64,000 nt of DNA from an uncultured Actinomycetes bacterium (GTDB taxonomy: Bacteria > Actinomycetota > UBA4738 > HRBIN12). Position 1 is the first letter of the stretch. Each line of letters begins with the position of its first letter. Of this stretch, positions 4,852 to 63,769 are shown one piece after another. The position numbers and the translations under genes are program-made. The DNA lies in NCBI GenBank assembly GCA_963821935.1, contig CAWGFM010000005.1, positions 254,551-318,550 on the forward strand. The letters are read 5' to 3'. A model generated the notes under the pieces. The model did no database searches, was not told the origin of the DNA, and was given only the letters and a program-made list of their open reading frames with translations.

Positions 4852-6237
4852 TCAGATCCCCTCGATCGCCTGCAGGCGACCGGACTTGACGGCCTCGAGG
4901 AAGGCGGCGTGGTCGAGCTCGTTCTGATCCGCATACCGCTCGGAGAACTCGACCAACGCGCGATCGAAGACATCACTCTTGCCCAGGTAGGCGGCGATCG
5001 CGATGGCATCGCCCGTGCGCGCATGGGCCCGCGCGAGCGTCCAGCCACAAGCCGTGGCGTACGCGAGCAGACCTTCCGGTCGGATCAGCTCGGTGTCGAT
5101 CGATCCCTTCATGTCCTTGAGCTGGCGCCAGTAGAAGTGACGCGTCGTGTCGGCACCCTTGGTCCAGCCGAGGAAGATGTCGCTCGCCGCCTGCATCGCC
5201 CGCTGACCCTGCACGACCCGTTCGCCGTGGTGACGGTATCGGCTCTTCGGGATGAACTCCTCCAGCACGGAGCTCGTCGCCTCCTTGATCTGGAGGAACA
5301 GCGGATCATCGCGGTCCCGTCCTTCGAGGAGCACGATGAATCCCCGCGTGCCGACGCTCCCGACCCCCACCACCTTGCGCGCGAAGTCGACCACCTTGAA
5401 CCGCTCCAGGAGCACTCGTCGATCGGGCTGCAGCGTGGAACGGTACGAGTGGAACTGGTCGGCGATCATGGTCTGGATGTCGTCGGGGAGCAACTCGGTC
5501 GGCATGTCGCGGAGCGGCACCACGATCGGCGGTGCGCTCGCGATCTTGAATTCGCCGTCCACCTCGATGGCCAGCTTGGAAAAGGCATGCAGGCTGTCAT
5601 GCATGCGGGCTTTCTCGATGACCTTCTGGGCACCCTTGCGAACGAGACCCGACGCGCTGTCCAACAGATCCTGCGCGCTCTGGTGGGAGTACCAGACATC
5701 GAGCGTGCCCATGCCGGCGAACCCCGCCATGGCCTCCCGATAGCTCTTGACGCACGAACCGGTCGCTCCGACGATCTCTTTGGAAGTGAATCCGCGATGT
5801 CGGCCCGCGATCGTGAAGCTGGCTGCCATCCGCTTGACGTCCCACTCCCACGGGCCGGGTAGCGTTTCGTCGAAGTCGTTCAGGTCGAAGACGAGATCGC
5901 GTTCCGGAGAGGCGAACAAGCCGAAGTTGGACAGATGAGCGTCGCCGCAGATCTGCGCCGTCAACCCCGACCGCGGGGTGGGTCCGAGATCTGCAGCCAT
6001 CACACGTGCGGCGCCACGGTAGAAGGTGAACGGCGACACCATCATGCGTCCGTGCCGTACGGGAACCAGGTCGGGTTCACGGCGCGCGTTCTGCTCGGCC
6101 AACAACGCGACCGGGTCCGGGCGGTCGGGCGAGGGGGTCCAGTCCCCATGGCTGGTTCTGGACACGAGCTTGCGGGCTTTCCGGCCCTCGGCCCTTCGTG
6201 CCTCAGCCGATGGATGATCCACCTTCGTCCTCGCCAT
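4852..6237 (-). CDS. DUF2252 domain protein
   Basis: Carries the characteristic block RPDPVALLAEQN...LVPVRHGRM..SPFTFYRGAA..MAADL..TP.SG..AQICGDAHLSNFG...FDLNDFDETLPGPWEWDVKR. The start is taken at MARTKVDH; the ORF in the supplied track extends to 6279. Confidence 0.75.
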   Translation of the reverse strand: MARTKVDHPSAEARRAEGRKARKLVSRTSHGDWTPSPDRPDPVALLAEQNARREPDLVPVRHGRMMVSPFTFYRGAARVMAADLGPTPRSGLTAQICGDAHLSNFGLFASPERDLVFDLNDFDETLPGPWEWDVKRMAASFTIAGRHRGFTSKEIVGATGSCVKSYREAMAGFAGMGTLDVWYSHQSAQDLLDSASGLVRKGAQKVIEKARMHDSLHAFSKLAIEVDGEFKIASAPPIVVPLRDMPTELLPDDIQTMIADQFHSYRSTLQPDRRVLLERFKVVDFARKVVGVGSVGTRGFIVLLEGRDRDDPLFLQIKEATSSVLEEFIPKSRYRHHGERVVQGQRAMQAASDIFLGWTKGADTTRHFYWRQLKDMKGSIDTELIRPEGLLAYATACGWTLARAHARTGDAIAIAAYLGKSDVFDRALVEFSERYADQNELDHAAFLEAVKSGRLQAIEGI

Positions 6238-6321
6238 GACGCGCGCTCCTCTCAGACCTGCCCAGGAGTCTGGCACCATGGCCGCGACCCCGCATCGTCC
6301 CGACTGGACGATGCGACCGGC

Positions 6322-50904: not shown

Positions 50905-52107
50905 TCACGATCGATCTCCGCCCGTGCGCTTGCGCTCCCTGATGCGCTCGACCCCTTTGTAGTTGGCGAGTGCCGAGAGCTCATGCTCGATCTGCACCAG
51001 GTCCGCCTGGTCGCGCATGACCTGATCGATCGGCTTGTAGGCATCGGGATGCTCGTCCAGCAAGGCATGCGCGTCCGATGCCTGCCACGAACGACCGGCC
51101 ATCTGGTCCTCGAGCGACTCGACGGACAACGTGGTGCGAGCCTTGGTCCGACTCATCCGACGCCCGGCACCGTGGGAGGACGACCGATACGAGGCATCGT
51201 TGCCCAGGCCGCGCACCACGTAGGAACGTTGCCCCATGCTGCCCGGGATCAAGCCGCGCGAGCCCACGCCGGCGTGGATGGCGCCCTTCCGGGTGATCCA
51301 TAGCCGGCGGCCATCGAACTCTTCGAGCTCCGTGTAGTTGTGGTGGCAGTTCACCTCGTCGGTCGGCGTCAGCTCCCGCCCCAGCATCACCTCGAGCTGC
51401 CGGTGGGTGGCGACCAGCATGAGCCGTCGGTTCTCGCCCGCGTAGGCCTGGGACCACGCCAGGTCTCGGATGTAGGCGTCGAACTCCGGGCTCCCCTGCT
51501 GGAGCCAGGCCAACTCGGGATCCTCCAGCTGCGTGCCGAGTCCGGCGTGCAGTCGCTTCGCCGTCTTGGTGTGCAAGGTCGCCAGCTTGTTGCCTCCACC
51601 ACGAGAGCCGGAGTGCAGCAGGATCCAGACCCAACCGTCCTGGTCGCCGGCCAGCTCGATGAAATGGTTGCCAGAACCCAGCGTGCCGAGCTGGATGGCT
51701 GCCCGCTCGTGGTCGGCAAGCGTCGGCGGCGGCGGGTGCTTCGCGAGCCAGGCCCTCGCCTCGTCCGATGCCTCGCCGTGCCAACGTCCGAGCCCGGCCG
51801 GGACGGCCCGGCGCATGCGGTCCACCCAAGCGTCCAGCCCCGCGTCAGGAAGCTGGTCGGCGCGGATCCGAAGGCGCCGCGCCGCCATGCCACACCCGAT
51901 GTCGACCCCGACGGCCGATGGGATGACGGCAGTCTCGGTGGGGATCACCGACCCGATCGTGGCGCCCATGCCCAGATGGGCGTCCGGCATCAGGGCGATG
52001 GGACCGGCCAGGATGGGCAGCCGCGCGGTTCGCGCCGCCTGCTCGGCGGTCACGTCGTCCAATTCGCTTGCCCAGCTCAGCACGCCGGGCGCGATCTCTC
52101 GGGGCAT
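50905..52107 (-). CDS. rtcB: RNA-splicing ligase RtcB (3'-phosphate/5'-OH RNA ligase)
   Basis: Metal- and GMP-binding motifs DAHLGMGATIGS, GSGNHF, HNYTE and SSSHGAGR, and the histidine for guanylylation. 400 aa. Confidence 0.9.
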   Translation of the reverse strand: MPREIAPGVLSWASELDDVTAEQAARTARLPILAGPIALMPDAHLGMGATIGSVIPTETAVIPSAVGVDIGCGMAARRLRIRADQLPDAGLDAWVDRMRRAVPAGLGRWHGEASDEARAWLAKHPPPPTLADHERAAIQLGTLGSGNHFIELAGDQDGWVWILLHSGSRGGGNKLATLHTKTAKRLHAGLGTQLEDPELAWLQQGSPEFDAYIRDLAWSQAYAGENRRLMLVATHRQLEVMLGRELTPTDEVNCHHNYTELEEFDGRRLWITRKGAIHAGVGSRGLIPGSMGQRSYVVRGLGNDASYRSSSHGAGRRMSRTKARTTLSVESLEDQMAGRSWQASDAHALLDEHPDAYKPIDQVMRDQADLVQIEHELSALANYKGVERIRERKRTGGDRS

Positions 52108-52566: not shown

Positions 52567-53382
52567 TTACTCCTCGGAGGTCGTCTCGGACGCCGGCGTG
52601 CTCGACGTCTCCTCGTTCTCGGTTGTCTTCGCCGCGGCAGGCTTCTTCGCGGCAGGCTTCTTGGTCGTCGTGGGCTTCTTCGTGGTCTTCTTGGCTGCGC
52701 TCGTCTTCTTGGCTGCGCTCGTCTTCTTCGCTGTTGGCTTCTTCGCGGTCGTCTTCTTGGCCGTTGGCTTCTTCTTGGCTGTGGTCTTCTTGGCCGTCGA
52801 CTTCTTCTTGGCTGCGGTCTTGTCGGCCGTGGTCTCCTCCGTGGGACCTTCGGGCTCCGCGGGCTCCGGCTCGGTAGTCGGCTCGTCCCTCACCAGACGC
52901 CGGCTCGTCCCTTTGACGGCGGGCGAGGGCAAGCCCTCCCACATCGGGGGCTGGCCGAAGGTGTAGTCGACCGGCTGTTGGGCTCCGTGCGGGTGCTGTG
53001 CGCCGGCGACGACGTGCAGCTTCTTGATCATGGTTCGGCCCAGACGGTTCTTGGGCAGCATGCCCCGGACGGCCTTCTCCACGGCGAACACCGGCCGGGT
53101 CGCGAGCAGCTCGTCGTAGCGGATCCCGGTGATGCCGCCTGGGTAGCCGGAATGCCGGTAGGCGACCTTCTTCAGCTCCTTGCCGCCGGTCAGCTCCACC
53201 TTGTCTGCATTGATCACGATCACGTGATCGCCGGTGTCCATGTGCGGCGCGAAGATGGGCTTGTGCTTGCCCCGCAGCAGCGCCGCGACTTCAGACGCGA
53301 CGCGACCCAGCACCCGTCCACTGGCGTCGACGACGTACCAACGCCGCTCGATGTGCTCAGGCTTCGGAGAGTAGGTCTTCAT
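52567..53382 (-). CDS. rplM: 50S ribosomal protein L13 with ~125-aa Lys/Ala/Thr-rich repetitive C-terminal extension
   Basis: N-terminal 146 aa is canonical L13 ([20 protein letters not shown]...[11 protein letters not shown]). The same frame then continues through (T/S)AKK(T/K) repeats to a stop 4 nt before rpsI. Confidence 0.9.
52620..52830 (-). repeat. tandem ~12-15-nt DNA repeats (ggcttcttcgcg / gtcttcttggc variants) encoding the (AKKT)n tail of L13
   Basis: Visible periodic cttcttggc/cttcttcgc units on the plus strand through this interval. Confidence 0.7.
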
Positions 53383-54597: not shown

Positions 54598-55527
54598 CTA
54601 CTCCTCCCGGAGTCCAAGGCCCAGCTCCTCGAGCTTGGCCTTCACCTCGTCGATCGACTTCTGTCCGAAGTTGCGGATGTCCATCAGCTCGGACTCGCTC
54701 TTGAGCACCAGGTCGCCGACGGCGTTGATGCCCTCACGCTTGAGGCAGTTGTAGGAGCGGACCGACAGGTTGAGCTCCTCGATCGTGATGGCGTAGTCGC
54801 CCGGGACCTCTTCGTCCTCGGCGGGGCCTACCGTCACGCTGGCGGCCTCCGCGAGCTCGCTGAACAGCTGCACCAGCTCCAGCATGGTGCCGCCGGCCGA
54901 GGCCACGGCCTCGCGCGGGGTGACGGAGCCGTCGGTCTCGACGTCCAGGATCAAGCGATCGCGGTCGGTCATCTGTTCCACGCGCGTGTTCTCCACGGCG
55001 TAGCTGACCTTGCGCACGGGCGAGAAGATCGAGTCGACCGGGATGACACCGATCGGGTCGCGGGGCTTCTTGTTCTTGTCGGCCATGCGGTAGCCGACGC
55101 CGCGTTCGACCGTCATCTCCATCTCGAGCGAGGCTCCCTTGCCCAGCGTGGCGATGTGAAGCTCGGGGTTCAAGATCTCGACGCCCGCGGGCGGTGCGAC
55201 GTCGCCGGCGGTGACCTCGCCGGGGCCCTTGGCCTTCAGGTAAACCGTGGTCGGTTCCTCCAGGTCGGATCGAACGACCAGCTCCTTGAGGTTCAAGATG
55301 ATGTCCGTGACGTCTTCGGTGACCTTGGGGATGGTGGAGAACTCGTGCAGCACCCCGTCGATGCGGACCGACGAGATGGCCGCGCCCGGGATGGACGACA
55401 GCAAGGTCCGGCGAAGCGAGTTGCCCACGGTGTAGCCGAACCCGGGTTCCAGCGGCTCGATGGCGAACTTGGAGCGGGTCGGTGAAACGATGTCCTCAGC
55501 GATCTGAGGCCTGGCGACGATGAACAC
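54598..55527 (-). CDS. rpoA: DNA-directed RNA polymerase subunit alpha
   Basis: N-terminal domain [17 protein letters not shown] and a C-terminal domain with helix-hairpin-helix ([13 protein letters not shown]). Confidence 0.96.
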
Positions 55528-55576
55528 GTACTTCCCTCCTTCGGCGGGGGATCAACCACTGCTACCCCGCCATCTG

Positions 55577-55657
55577 CGCCGGGGACGAGCCCCGGCCTAC
55601 ATTCCTCTGGAGCGCGCTAGACGCGGCTTCTCTTCTTGCGCCGCGCTAGACGCGGCG
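55577..55657 (-). repeat. intergenic rpsK-rpoA hairpin cluster: gccgggg-acgag-ccccggc plus two copies of gcgcgctagacgcggc (one overlapping the rpsK stop)
   Basis: Palindromes seen directly. This is the position where rpsD normally sits in actinobacterial alpha operons. Confidence 0.4.
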
Positions 55658-56505: not shown

Positions 56506-56619
56506 CTAGCCTTGACGCTGCTTGTGGCGCGGATTGGTGCAGATGACCAGGATCTTGCCTCGCCGGCGGATGACCCGGCACCGGTCGCAGATCCTCTTGA
56601 CGCTGGGGCGGACCTTCAT
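56506..56619 (-). CDS. rpmJ: 50S ribosomal protein L36 (zinc-binding form)
   Basis: Manually translated 37-aa [40 protein letters not shown]. Not in the supplied ORF track because it is shorter than 60 aa. Confidence 0.9.
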
Positions 56620-56968: not shown

Positions 56969-57730
56969 TCACGCGCGGTGGGTCAGGATCTCGGGGCCAT
57001 CGTCGGTGATGGCCACCGTGTGCTCGAAGTGGGCTGCGATCGAACCGTCCGCCGTCACGACGGTCCAGCCGTCGGCGAGGAGGCGCGTCTCCTCGCCCGC
57101 GGCCGTCAACATGGGCTCGATCGCGATCACCAGACCGGGGCGAAGGTCGGGGCCGCGGCCGGGGCTGCCGAAGTTCGAGATGAACGGGTCCTCGTGCATG
57201 GATCGGCCGATGCCGTGACCTCCGTACTCACGGATGATGCCGAACCCTGCCGGCGCCGCGACGCTCTCGATCGCGTGCCCGATGTCGGATAACCGCCCGC
57301 CGGGACGGGCAGCCGCGATCCCTGCGTACAGACACTCCTCGGTCGTCTTCACCAACCTCGAGGCCTCCTCCGACGGCGGGTCACCGCCCACGAACACCGT
57401 CACCGCGGAATCGCCATGGAACCCGTCCCAGATAGCCCCGAAGTCCAGCGACAAGACCTGGCCCTCGGACAGCATCCGGGTGCGCGAGGGGATGCCGTGG
57501 ACGATCTCGTCGTCGATCGATGCGCAGATCGTGGCGGGGTAGGTGCCCTTGTACCCCTTGAAGGACGGCAGCGCGCCCTCGTCGCTGATGTAGGACTCCG
57601 CCACCTGGTCGAGGTCGGCCGTGGAGATGCCGGGTCGGACGGCTGCCAGGACGGCGTCGATCGCTCCGGCCACGATGCGACCCGCCTCGCGCATCGTCTG
57701 CAGCTCTCGAGGCGATTTCCGGATGATCAT
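56969..57730 (-). CDS. map: type I methionine aminopeptidase
   Basis: Starts MIIRKSPRELQTMREAG and has metal ligands D.D.H.E.E. The start overlaps the adk stop (ATGA). Confidence 0.93.
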   Translation of the reverse strand: MIIRKSPRELQTMREAGRIVAGAIDAVLAAVRPGISTADLDQVAESYISDEGALPSFKGYKGTYPATICASIDDEIVHGIPSRTRMLSEGQVLSLDFGAIWDGFHGDSAVTVFVGGDPPSEEASRLVKTTEECLYAGIAAARPGGRLSDIGHAIESVAAPAGFGIIREYGGHGIGRSMHEDPFISNFGSPGRGPDLRPGLVIAIEPMLTAAGEETRLLADGWTVVTADGSIAAHFEHTVAITDDGPEILTHRA

Positions 57731-58377
57731 GGGGCCTCCTTCAGCATGCCGATCGTCCGCTCGGCGACCACGTCGACCGCGCCCTCCGCGTCGATCTCGT
57801 GCAGGAGGCCTCGTTCCGCGTAGAAGTCCTCGAGCGGTTCGGTCTGCTCCTGGTAGACCGCCAAACGCCGGCGAACCGTGAGCTCGTCGTCGTCCGCGCG
57901 TCGTTCCAGAGCGGCGCCTTCGAGGTCGCAGACCGAGTCGCTGGCCGGCGGCTTGAACTCCATGTTGTAGGTAGTCTTGCAGACCGGGCACGTCCAGCGG
58001 TTCGAGAGCCGCCGCACAGCGACCCCGTCGGAGATCTGGAACTTCAACACCGCGGTCAAGGGCAGCTGCGCGCGCTCGAGCGCCGCCTCCAGCGCCATGG
58101 CCTGCGGCACGGTGCGCGGGAACCCGTCCAGGATGAACCCGCTCCGGGCATCCGGATCGTCGAGGCGATCGGTCACCATCCGCACCACCAGGTCATCGCT
58201 GACGAACTCGCCGCGGTCCATGACCGCTCGCGCCTGGATCCCGAGCGCCGTGCCTTCTTGGACGTGTTGACGAAGGATGTCACCCGTGGAGATCTGGGGG
58301 ATGTCGTAGCGATCCACCAAGCGCTGCGCCTGGGTTCCCTTGCCTGCCCCCGGGGGCCCGAGCAACACGAGCCGCAC
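57727..58377 (-). CDS. adk: adenylate kinase (with Zn-finger lid CxxC...)
   Basis: P-loop GPPGAGKGTQ and a lid with CPVCKT... Confidence 0.95.
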   Translation of the reverse strand: MRLVLLGPPGAGKGTQAQRLVDRYDIPQISTGDILRQHVQEGTALGIQARAVMDRGEFVSDDLVVRMVTDRLDDPDARSGFILDGFPRTVPQAMALEAALERAQLPLTAVLKFQISDGVAVRRLSNRWTCPVCKTTYNMEFKPPASDSVCDLEGAALERRADDDELTVRRRLAVYQEQTEPLEDFYAERGLLHEIDAEGAVDVVAERTIGMLKEAP

Positions 58378-61873: not shown

Positions 61874-62299
61874 TCACCACACGTGGGCGAGCACTTCGCC
61901 GCCCACGCCCTTGCGGGAAGCATCGCGGTCGGTCATGAGGCCCTGAGACGTCGACACGATCGCGATGCCGAGCCCGCCGAGCACTCGCGGCAGATCGTTG
62001 CGACCGACGTAGACCCGTCGCCCGGGCGTGGAGATCCGCTTGATCCCCGTGATCGTGCGCTGCCGGTTCTTCGCGTACTTCAGCCGAACGCGGAATCCTC
62101 GATGCGTGCCTTCACCCTCGACCTCGAAGCCCTGGATGTAGCCCTCGGCCTCCAAGATGCCGAGCAAGGCCTGGTTCTGCTTGGACACGGGGACGAGGAG
62201 ATCGTCCTTGTAGGCCAGGTTGGCGTTGCGGATCCGCGTGAGCAGGTCCGCGACCGGGTCCGTGACGTTGCTCGAGAACGTTCGCTGGGTGCTCACCAT
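61874..62299 (-). CDS. rpsH: 30S ribosomal protein S8
   Basis: Has ...[15 protein letters not shown]... ATG at 62299, one nt after the rpsN stop. Confidence 0.93.
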
Positions 62300-62478
62300 G
62301 AGGACTTCGTCACCCCCGGGAGCTCCCCGGCGTGGGCCAACTGCCGGAAGCAGATGCGGCAGAGCAGGAACCGCTTGTACACGGCTCGCGCCCGCCCGCA
62401 CTTCTGGCAGCGTGTGTATCCACGAACGCGGAACTTGGGCTGCTTCAGCTGCTTGTTCTTGAGTGCCTTCTTCGCCAT
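62293..62478 (-). CDS. rpsN: 30S ribosomal protein S14 type Z (zinc-ribbon form)
   Basis: 61 aa, [12 protein letters not shown]...[20 protein letters not shown]. Confidence 0.94.
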
Positions 62479-62489
62479 GTGATCCCTCG

Positions 62490-63065
62490 TCAGCCTGCCT
62501 GCGCGGCCGAGGTCTGCCCCGTGAAGGGGAAGCCCAGGGCCGACAGGAGGGCTTGACCCTCGTCGTCGGACGCGGCGGTCGTCACGATCGTGATGTCCAT
62601 GCCGCGGATCTTCGCCACCTTGTCGTAGTCGATCTCCGGGAAGATCAGCTGCTCGGTGACGCCCATCGTGTAATTGCCGTGACCGTCGAACGCCGCGGGG
62701 TTCATGCCGCGGAAGTCTCGGATCCGTGGGAGTGCGAGCGCCACGAGGCGGTCGTAGAACTCCCACATGCGATCGCCCCGCAGGGTGACCTTGGCACCGA
62801 TCGCCATCCCCTCACGCAGCTTGAAACCGGCGATCGACTGTCGGGCCTTGGTGACCACCGGCTTCTGCCCGGTGATCGTCGTCAGGTCCTCGAGGGCGGC
62901 CTCCAGCATACGACCGTCCTTGACGGCGTCACCGATGCCCATGTTGACCACGATCTTGTCCAGTCGGGGCACCTGCATGATGTTGGCCAACCCCATCTGA
63001 TCTTTGAGCGCGGGCCGGATCTCGTCGCGGAACGCCTGCTTGAGCCTGGGTGTGTAGTCGCTCAT
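62490..63065 (-). CDS. rplE: 50S ribosomal protein L5
   Basis: Starts [16 protein letters not shown]. The start overlaps the rplX stop. Confidence 0.95.
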
Positions 63066-63400
63066 AGGTCTGCCTCGCATTTCCTGCAGATGCGGACCTT
63101 CGTGCCGTCGTCCTCGATGCGGTAGCCGACCCTGGTGGGTTGGCCGCACTTGCCACACACCGGCTGCACGTTGGAGATGTCGATGAACGTCTCCACGTCG
63201 ATGATGCCGCCCTGCTGCACGGCCTGGCTCGACCCGCTGGCCCGCCCTCCTGCACGTTGGTGCTTCTTGGCGAGCGCGACGCCGTCGACCATCACACGGC
63301 CCTCGCTCGGCAACACGCGGACCACACGGCCCTCTTTGCCCCGGTCCTTGCCGCTCATGACGCGGACGTTGTCGTCTTTCCTGATGTTGACTCCGGGCAT
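63062..63400 (-). CDS. rplX: 50S ribosomal protein L24 carrying a C-terminal C4 zinc-ribbon (CGKCG...CRKC)
   Basis: KOW domain followed by [32 protein letters not shown]. Confidence 0.93.
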
Positions 63401-63769
63401 CTACAGCACCTCCGGCGCGAGCGAGATGATCTTCATGAACCGCTTCTCGCGCAGCTCCCGCGCAACGGGCCCGAAGATGCGGGTGCCACGCGGGTTCTTC
63501 TGTTCGTTGATGATCACGACCGCGTTGTCATCGAATCGGATGTAGGAACCGTCGGGACGCCGCCGCTCCTTGGCCGTGCGCACGACGACGGCGCGAACGA
63601 CCTCGCCCTTCTTCACGCCGCCACCCGGCAGGGCGTCCTTCACGGTGCCGACGATGACGTCGCCGACGCCCGCATAGCGGCGCCCGGAGCCACCGAGGAC
63701 GCGGATGCACAGGACCTCTTTGGCCCCCGTGTTGTCCGCGACCTTGCAGCGCGATTCGGACTGGATCAC
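63401..63769 (-). CDS. rplN: 50S ribosomal protein L14
   Basis: 122 aa, starts [17 protein letters not shown]. Confidence 0.96.

Follow-up and report, generated by a model that had tools for sequence, protein, structure and literature searches.

The gene described here is very probably an ordinary rplX, encoded in its operon and seen in a single copy in the window, whose product is the known four-cysteine (C+), zinc-binding isoform of the 50S ribosomal protein uL24, the zinc binding being assigned by homology. Since this type of uL24 has already been described, the significance of the assignment beyond correct annotation is small, and the sole mildly notable point is that the lineage carrying the gene appears to be mesophilic. 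Throughout, the window denotes the whole 64,000-nucleotide (64-kb) stretch of DNA that was analyzed, in which the following features are referred to:

63401–63769, minus strand: rplN (uL14), directly upstream of rplX (ORF list; gene calls on identical public contigs)
63062–63400, minus strand: rplX, 50S ribosomal protein uL24, C+ (four-Cys) isoform, 112 aa (ORF and translation, TIGR01079, Pfam, Foldseek)
63146–63157, minus strand: first CxxC knuckle, Cys82-Gly-Lys-Cys85, codons TGT...TGC (sequence; aligns with C-P-A-C of Thermus thermophilus uL24)
63077–63088, minus strand: second CxxC knuckle, Cys105-Arg-Lys-Cys108 (sequence; aligns with C-A-K-C of T. thermophilus uL24)
62490–63065, minus strand: rplE (uL5), 191 aa (sequence; gene calls in L081–L083)
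62293–62478, minus strand: rpsN, type Z uS14, 61 aa, with C24, C27, C40 and C43 (NF005974, 107 bits against a cutoff of 77)
56506–56619, minus strand: rpmJ, bL36, 37 aa, with C11, C14, C27 and H32 (TIGR01022, 70 bits against a cutoff of 22.7)

rplX is part of the spc operon

The open reading frame comprises 112 codons with an ATG start, and its translation is the protein quoted in the original prediction. The bacterial model TIGR01079 (rplX_bact) matches residues 5–110 with 107.1 bits (cutoff 53.7), and the archaeal/eukaryotic model TIGR01080 matches in the KOW part only (residues 4–46); for the identical protein in public contigs, PF00467 (KOW) and PF17136 (ribosomal_L24) are recorded. The gene is flanked by rplN and rplE in the spc operon, within the minus-strand series rpsQ-rplN-rplX-rplE-rpsN-rpsH-rplF-rplR-rpsE-rpmD-rplO-secY-adk-map-infA-rpmJ. 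The rplX ATG, which is preceded at a distance of 8 nt by GGAGG, directly follows the stop codon of rplN, and the TGA stop codon of rplX overlaps the ATG of rplE (ATGA), which suggests that the two genes are translationally coupled. Several long contigs from public metagenomes encode an identical uL24 and share the gene order from rplB to rplO, the carriers including ENA assemblies ERZ250395xx and a contig named XZ_Gr. A scan of the whole 64-kb window with Rfam at gathering thresholds returned 0 matches, and thus no annotated ribosomal protein leader or other RNA.

This setting bears on the origin of the C+ form. That a resident rplX was swapped for the C+ allele of another phylum, for example Chloroflexota, or of a thermophile, would have a parallel in ribosomal protein S4, for which forms with and without zinc are reported to have been transferred horizontally (PMC3087516), and the window uL24 is indeed about as similar to S. 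aureus uL24 (44–47% identity) as it is to Mycobacterium uL24 (39–42%). However, we consider such a replacement very unlikely, because (i) the gene is embedded in a canonical spc operon, with no spacer after rplN and a stop codon that overlaps the rplE start; (ii) its GC3 of 0.88 is like that of the neighboring genes; (iii) the closest relatives of the protein (65–93% identity) are all from Actinomycetota metagenome-assembled genomes (MAGs); and (iv) its central loop, like the comparably long loops of mycobacterial and Streptomyces uL24, is longer than that found in Firmicutes, with phmmer placing a 7-residue gap against S. aureus uL24.

The four cysteines align with the zinc site of Thermus uL24

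The protein contains exactly four cysteine residues, C82, C85, C105 and C108, in a CxxC-x19-CxxC arrangement; the spacer of 17 residues given in the original prediction was a miscount by two. Assuming a cysteine frequency of about 0.9%, the chance expectation for this motif in a 112-residue protein is about 6e-6. Conservation of the cysteines among relatives, which had been proposed as a check, is borne out: CxxC-x18/19-CxxC is present in 119 of the 120 best homologues (73–93% identity) and at 84 of 85 related genome loci, and all four cysteines are invariant in alignment A1 (27 homologues, 71–93% identity), in which positions 83, 84 and 86 vary freely. Judged from these alignments, the four residues are kept by purifying selection and the motif is not a product of chance. 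At the sole exception among the related loci (L068, positions 6001–6303), the L24 match ends at residue 101, without a second CxxC; as this is a contig of long-read style, the short L24 may reflect a frameshift error instead of a real truncation.

When the C-terminal 49 residues were compared with PDB chain sequences using phmmer, T. thermophilus uL24, the chain sequence of which occurs in 267 PDB entries, was the top match. All four cysteines are paired without any gap in the alignment (...RICRKC in the window protein, ...RVCAKC in Thermus), so that the spacing is x19 in both. For this Thermus uL24, coordination of Zn2+ has been reported from ribosome structures (PMC10450194). The two proteins (for Thermus, PDB 4Y4Y/4zer, chain 1Y) are members of the same family with the same fold, have the CxxC-x19-CxxC motif at the same columns and share a conserved G-x-PTRV after the first knuckle; they differ in that overall identity is only about 38–40%, the central loop is longer in the window protein, and its host is apparently mesophilic whereas Thermus is thermophilic. 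The one-to-one pairing of the cysteines supports the original reading of the motif as a zinc ribbon in L24.

The novelty implied for such an L24 did not hold up, as uL24 was already treated as a C+/C- protein in a 2023 survey by Helena-Bueno et al. (NAR), which counts it with the ribosomal proteins that bind Zn2+ in Thermus and follows the two forms, C+ and C-, through 2021 bacteria (PMC10450194). The C+ form is defined there by the pattern (CXXC)-(CXXC), to which C82-x2-C85-x19-C105-x2-C108 of the window protein conforms. The survey, the sample of which consisted of cultured species with known growth optima, describes the uL24 site as 'immutable' at optimal growth temperatures of at least 80 °C and as progressively rarer below, with mention of low-temperature 'outliers' (PMC10450194). 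The window uL24 fits the definition and thus belongs to an isoform class that has already been described and structurally characterized. Its host and the 80-plus MAG relatives are uncultured and probably mesophilic, which would place them among these outliers.

L24 may have been absent from the classical 2001 list of C+/C- paralogue families. A similarly named protein is set apart from this comparison. Archaeal and eukaryotic L24e (eL24) binds zinc via a treble-clef finger and is, despite its name, unrelated and non-homologous to bacterial uL24; two papers on zinc and L24 (PMC4999995, PMC3352095) concern L24e and were set aside.

Structural model and predicted zinc site

In an AlphaFold2 model of the window uL24, built on a 27-sequence alignment, strands are present for both halves of the protein, and residues 44–68 form the long central loop at low confidence. 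Over the C-terminal domain (residues 71–112), block-mean pLDDT values are 86–91. This domain is modeled with strands at residues 78–81, 91–95 and 101–105, the first knuckle following immediately after strand 78–81 and the second lying at the end of strand 101–105, with strand 91–95 as the hairpin strand between them. As modeled, the C-terminal domain thus has the topology of a zinc ribbon, namely a two-knuckle β-hairpin. A Foldseek search of the PDB with the model gave 119 matches at E≤0.001, the best 50 of which are all uL24 chains (TMq 0.64–0.73). Thermus chains score 0.72–0.73, and the C- chains of S. aureus, M. smegmatis and Streptomyces fradiae fit to about the same degree, so that the presence or absence of a metal site leaves the uL24 fold unchanged.

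By analogy with T. thermophilus uL24, the two CxxC knuckles, located at the turns of the C-terminal β-hairpin domain, would jointly chelate one structural Zn2+, and this ion would hold the small RNA-binding domain in shape. Both the zinc binding and the stabilizing role are assigned to the window protein by homology. We see next to no likelihood that the cysteines serve otherwise, by forming disulfides, by holding another metal or a cluster, or by being functionally neutral. The metal state of the window uL24 is a prediction from sequence, and Thermus uS4 illustrates that a similar set of cysteines can hold an iron–sulfur cluster and not Zn; however, the near-absolute conservation of all four residues across 65–93% identity excludes neutrality, the four positions are homologous to those of a Thermus site described as Zn2+-binding, and the modeled topology is that of a zinc ribbon.

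Distribution of the C+ form and its probable ancestry

An HMMER scan of 1.84 billion representatives of 50%-identity clusters identified 5100 uL24-like proteins at E≤0.001. Among the best 150 of these 5100 representatives, 113 have cysteine at all four homologous columns, a figure that reflects breadth and not population frequency, as Cys–Cys matches add to the score and the ranking thus favors C+ proteins. A strict pattern search recovered 106 of the same best 150, with x18 or x19 spacing in 98 of the 106. The C+ clusters to which an organism could be assigned belong to Actinomycetota, Chloroflexota, Aquificota and Ca. Paceibacterota which, together with Thermus, amounts to five phyla, a minimum in that organism names were attached to a minority of the 30 clusters looked up.

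Within Actinomycetota, the full range of states is found. The window lineage and clusters P0121, P0122 and P0126 are fully C+; a CxxD...CxxC form occurs in P0145 (an Actinomycetota MAG), and is also seen in P0130 and P0172, clusters without an organism name; a single cysteine, in SxxD...CxxT, is left in P0150 (Acidimicrobiales); and P0166, M. tuberculosis, M. smegmatis and S. fradiae are fully C-. The uL24 proteins of the three named species (PDB 5v7q, 5o60 and 9qt5, respectively) are from the same phylum, are encoded by the same operon gene and have the same fold as the window protein, but they are C-: approximately D/S...G and S/A...N/T occupy the respective positions (VVDSDGKPTRIGYR...RISKRNG), making a metal site impossible. 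The sequence cited as a C- comparison in the original prediction (DSDGKPTRIGYR...RISKRNG) matches M. tuberculosis uL24 (PDB 5v7q).

The original prediction had called the L24 zinc ribbon 'acquired'. Identical columns and spacing across phyla, combined with partly decayed forms, fit better with an old C+ state and repeated loss, as is commonly suggested for zinc ribbons in ribosomal proteins. On this distribution, we consider it rather likely that the C+ state of the window uL24 was inherited from a C+ ancestor and that in Mycobacterium and Streptomyces it is C- that is derived. The direction of change is read from the distribution, the bacterial C-terminal domain having no clear archaeal counterpart by which to root it. 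This want of an archaeal outgroup for the ancestral state also speaks for the opposite course, in which a C- actinobacterial uL24 would have gained four cysteines in this lineage, converging on a Thermus-type site, as does the C- state of the best-studied Actinomycetota (M. tuberculosis, M. smegmatis and S. fradiae); the partly Cys-bearing forms could in principle be steps towards such a gain. Nevertheless, lineage-specific acquisition appears improbable: it would require many independent four-residue gains at the same columns, mostly with x18 or x19 spacing, in Deinococcota (Thermus), Chloroflexota, Aquificota and Ca. Paceibacterota, and several separate Actinomycetota clusters are also C+ at these columns. 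Furthermore, the lone cysteine of the Acidimicrobiales SxxD...CxxT form has no use in metal binding and is more easily understood as a leftover. Given the same four columns in several phyla and the decayed actinobacterial forms, the claim of acquisition is thus not supported, and inheritance from a C+ ancestor is the reading we prefer.

Non-canonical knuckles are found in a number of uL24 cluster representatives (P0145, P0130, P0172, P0206, P0225, P0226 and P0238), some having CxxD in place of the first CxxC and others having the second replaced by CKxxxCG (CxxxxC). These proteins may be further metal-binding isoforms outside the published (CXXC)-(CXXC) definition.

Zinc-site ribosomal proteins and the search for a C- paralogue in the window

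The classical Zur-regulated C+/C- pairs (L31, L32, L33, L36, L28, S14 and S18) resemble uL24 in that each is a small ribosomal protein with a four-ligand zinc site that occurs in cysteine-containing and cysteine-free versions. They differ in that a single genome holds both paralogues, zinc starvation leading to derepression of the C- one, whereas for uL24 one copy was seen in the 64 kb. Using tblastn, we detected no second L24-like ORF, and hence no C- paralogue, in the 64-kb window besides rplX itself, and a Zur-box-like palindrome (consensus TGAAAATNATTTTCA) had 0 matches in the window when up to 3 mismatches were allowed. Judged from these 64 kb, C+ and C- uL24 would alternate between lineages and not within one genome.

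The original prediction correctly noted that a zinc-ribbon S14 of type Z and a Cys3His L36 are encoded in the same cluster: rpsN and rpmJ match NF005974 and TIGR01022, respectively, and the ligand residues can be read in both. As these are the standard forms of this operon in Gram-positive bacteria, their co-occurrence is to be expected. As an additional zinc-binding ribosomal protein, C+ uL24 adds one to zinc-economy models of these bacteria.

A further cysteine cluster in the operon is found in adenylate kinase (57727–58377, minus strand), the lid of which (residues 130–153) reads C130-x2-C133-x16-C150, with Glu at position 153. In the zinc-binding adenylate kinases of Gram-positive bacteria, the fourth ligand is Cys or Asp. 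Judging by these residues, the lid may hold a metal site of Cys3-Glu type, or one in decay.

Host lineage and growth temperature

The related genome loci, of which there are at least 80, are all from uncultured MAGs labeled 'Actinomycetota' or 'Actinomycetes bacterium', and isolate names such as MFD... and SMAG_... suggest that these relatives are from soil and other environmental, non-thermal sources. One relative, L024 (74% identity, isolate KatS3mg013), may be from a hot-spring metagenome, a source that we take from its name alone. The window has a G+C content of 67.4%, and its genes follow the order rpsM-rpsK-rpoA-rplQ-truA-rplM-rpsI-glmM...glmS...alr...groES-groEL (several being named from N-terminal sequence only), which is the usual actinobacterial order. 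Over 53 long ORFs of the window, some of them probably spurious, the IVYWREL fraction is 0.3955 which, by the Zeldovich relation, corresponds roughly to 36 °C. The window lineage thus looks mesophilic.

Thermophily was considered as the reason for the cysteines and rejected as a likely one, given the IVYWREL estimate of about 36 °C and the soil-type metagenome names. Since the published survey links C+ uL24 mainly to thermophiles and this lineage, going by its record names, is from soil-type metagenomes, the thermostability rationale is not obviously applicable here. The at least 80 related Actinomycetota genomes with C+ uL24 would accordingly be exceptions to the use of the uL24 cysteines as a 'molecular thermometer'.

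A more far-reaching proposal, which we put forward tentatively and regard as rather unlikely, is that a large, mesophilic-looking lineage of Actinomycetota keeps C+ uL24 under strict selection with no cysteine-free back-up copy. If true, C+ uL24 would not be a marker of thermal adaptation in this group, and a protein that nucleates 50S assembly would be zinc-dependent, so that ribosome biogenesis could be tied directly to zinc supply. Alternatively, C+ uL24 could be a trace of thermophilic ancestry here.

Other genes in the window

Between rpsI and glmM, the minus strand encodes a 400-residue homologue of the RtcB RNA ligase family (50905–52107). Its scores do not reach the curated cutoff of any NCBIfam RtcB model, and its best partial match is to intein-containing variants.

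In Mycobacterium and Streptomyces, rpsD (uS4) sits between rpsK and rpoA. In the window, rpsK ends at 55646 and rpoA occupies 54598–55527, with no rpsD in the interval 55528–55645, and a tblastn search with E. coli S4 found no match anywhere in the 64-kb window; S4 must therefore be encoded elsewhere.

In bacteria, uL13 is mostly about 145 residues long. The rplM product (uL13; 52567–53382, minus strand) matches TIGR01066 over residues 6–140 and then continues into a C-terminal extension of about 125 residues, composed of repeats rich in Lys, Ala, Thr and Pro, which shows weak matches to models of histone-H1-like DNA-binding proteins.
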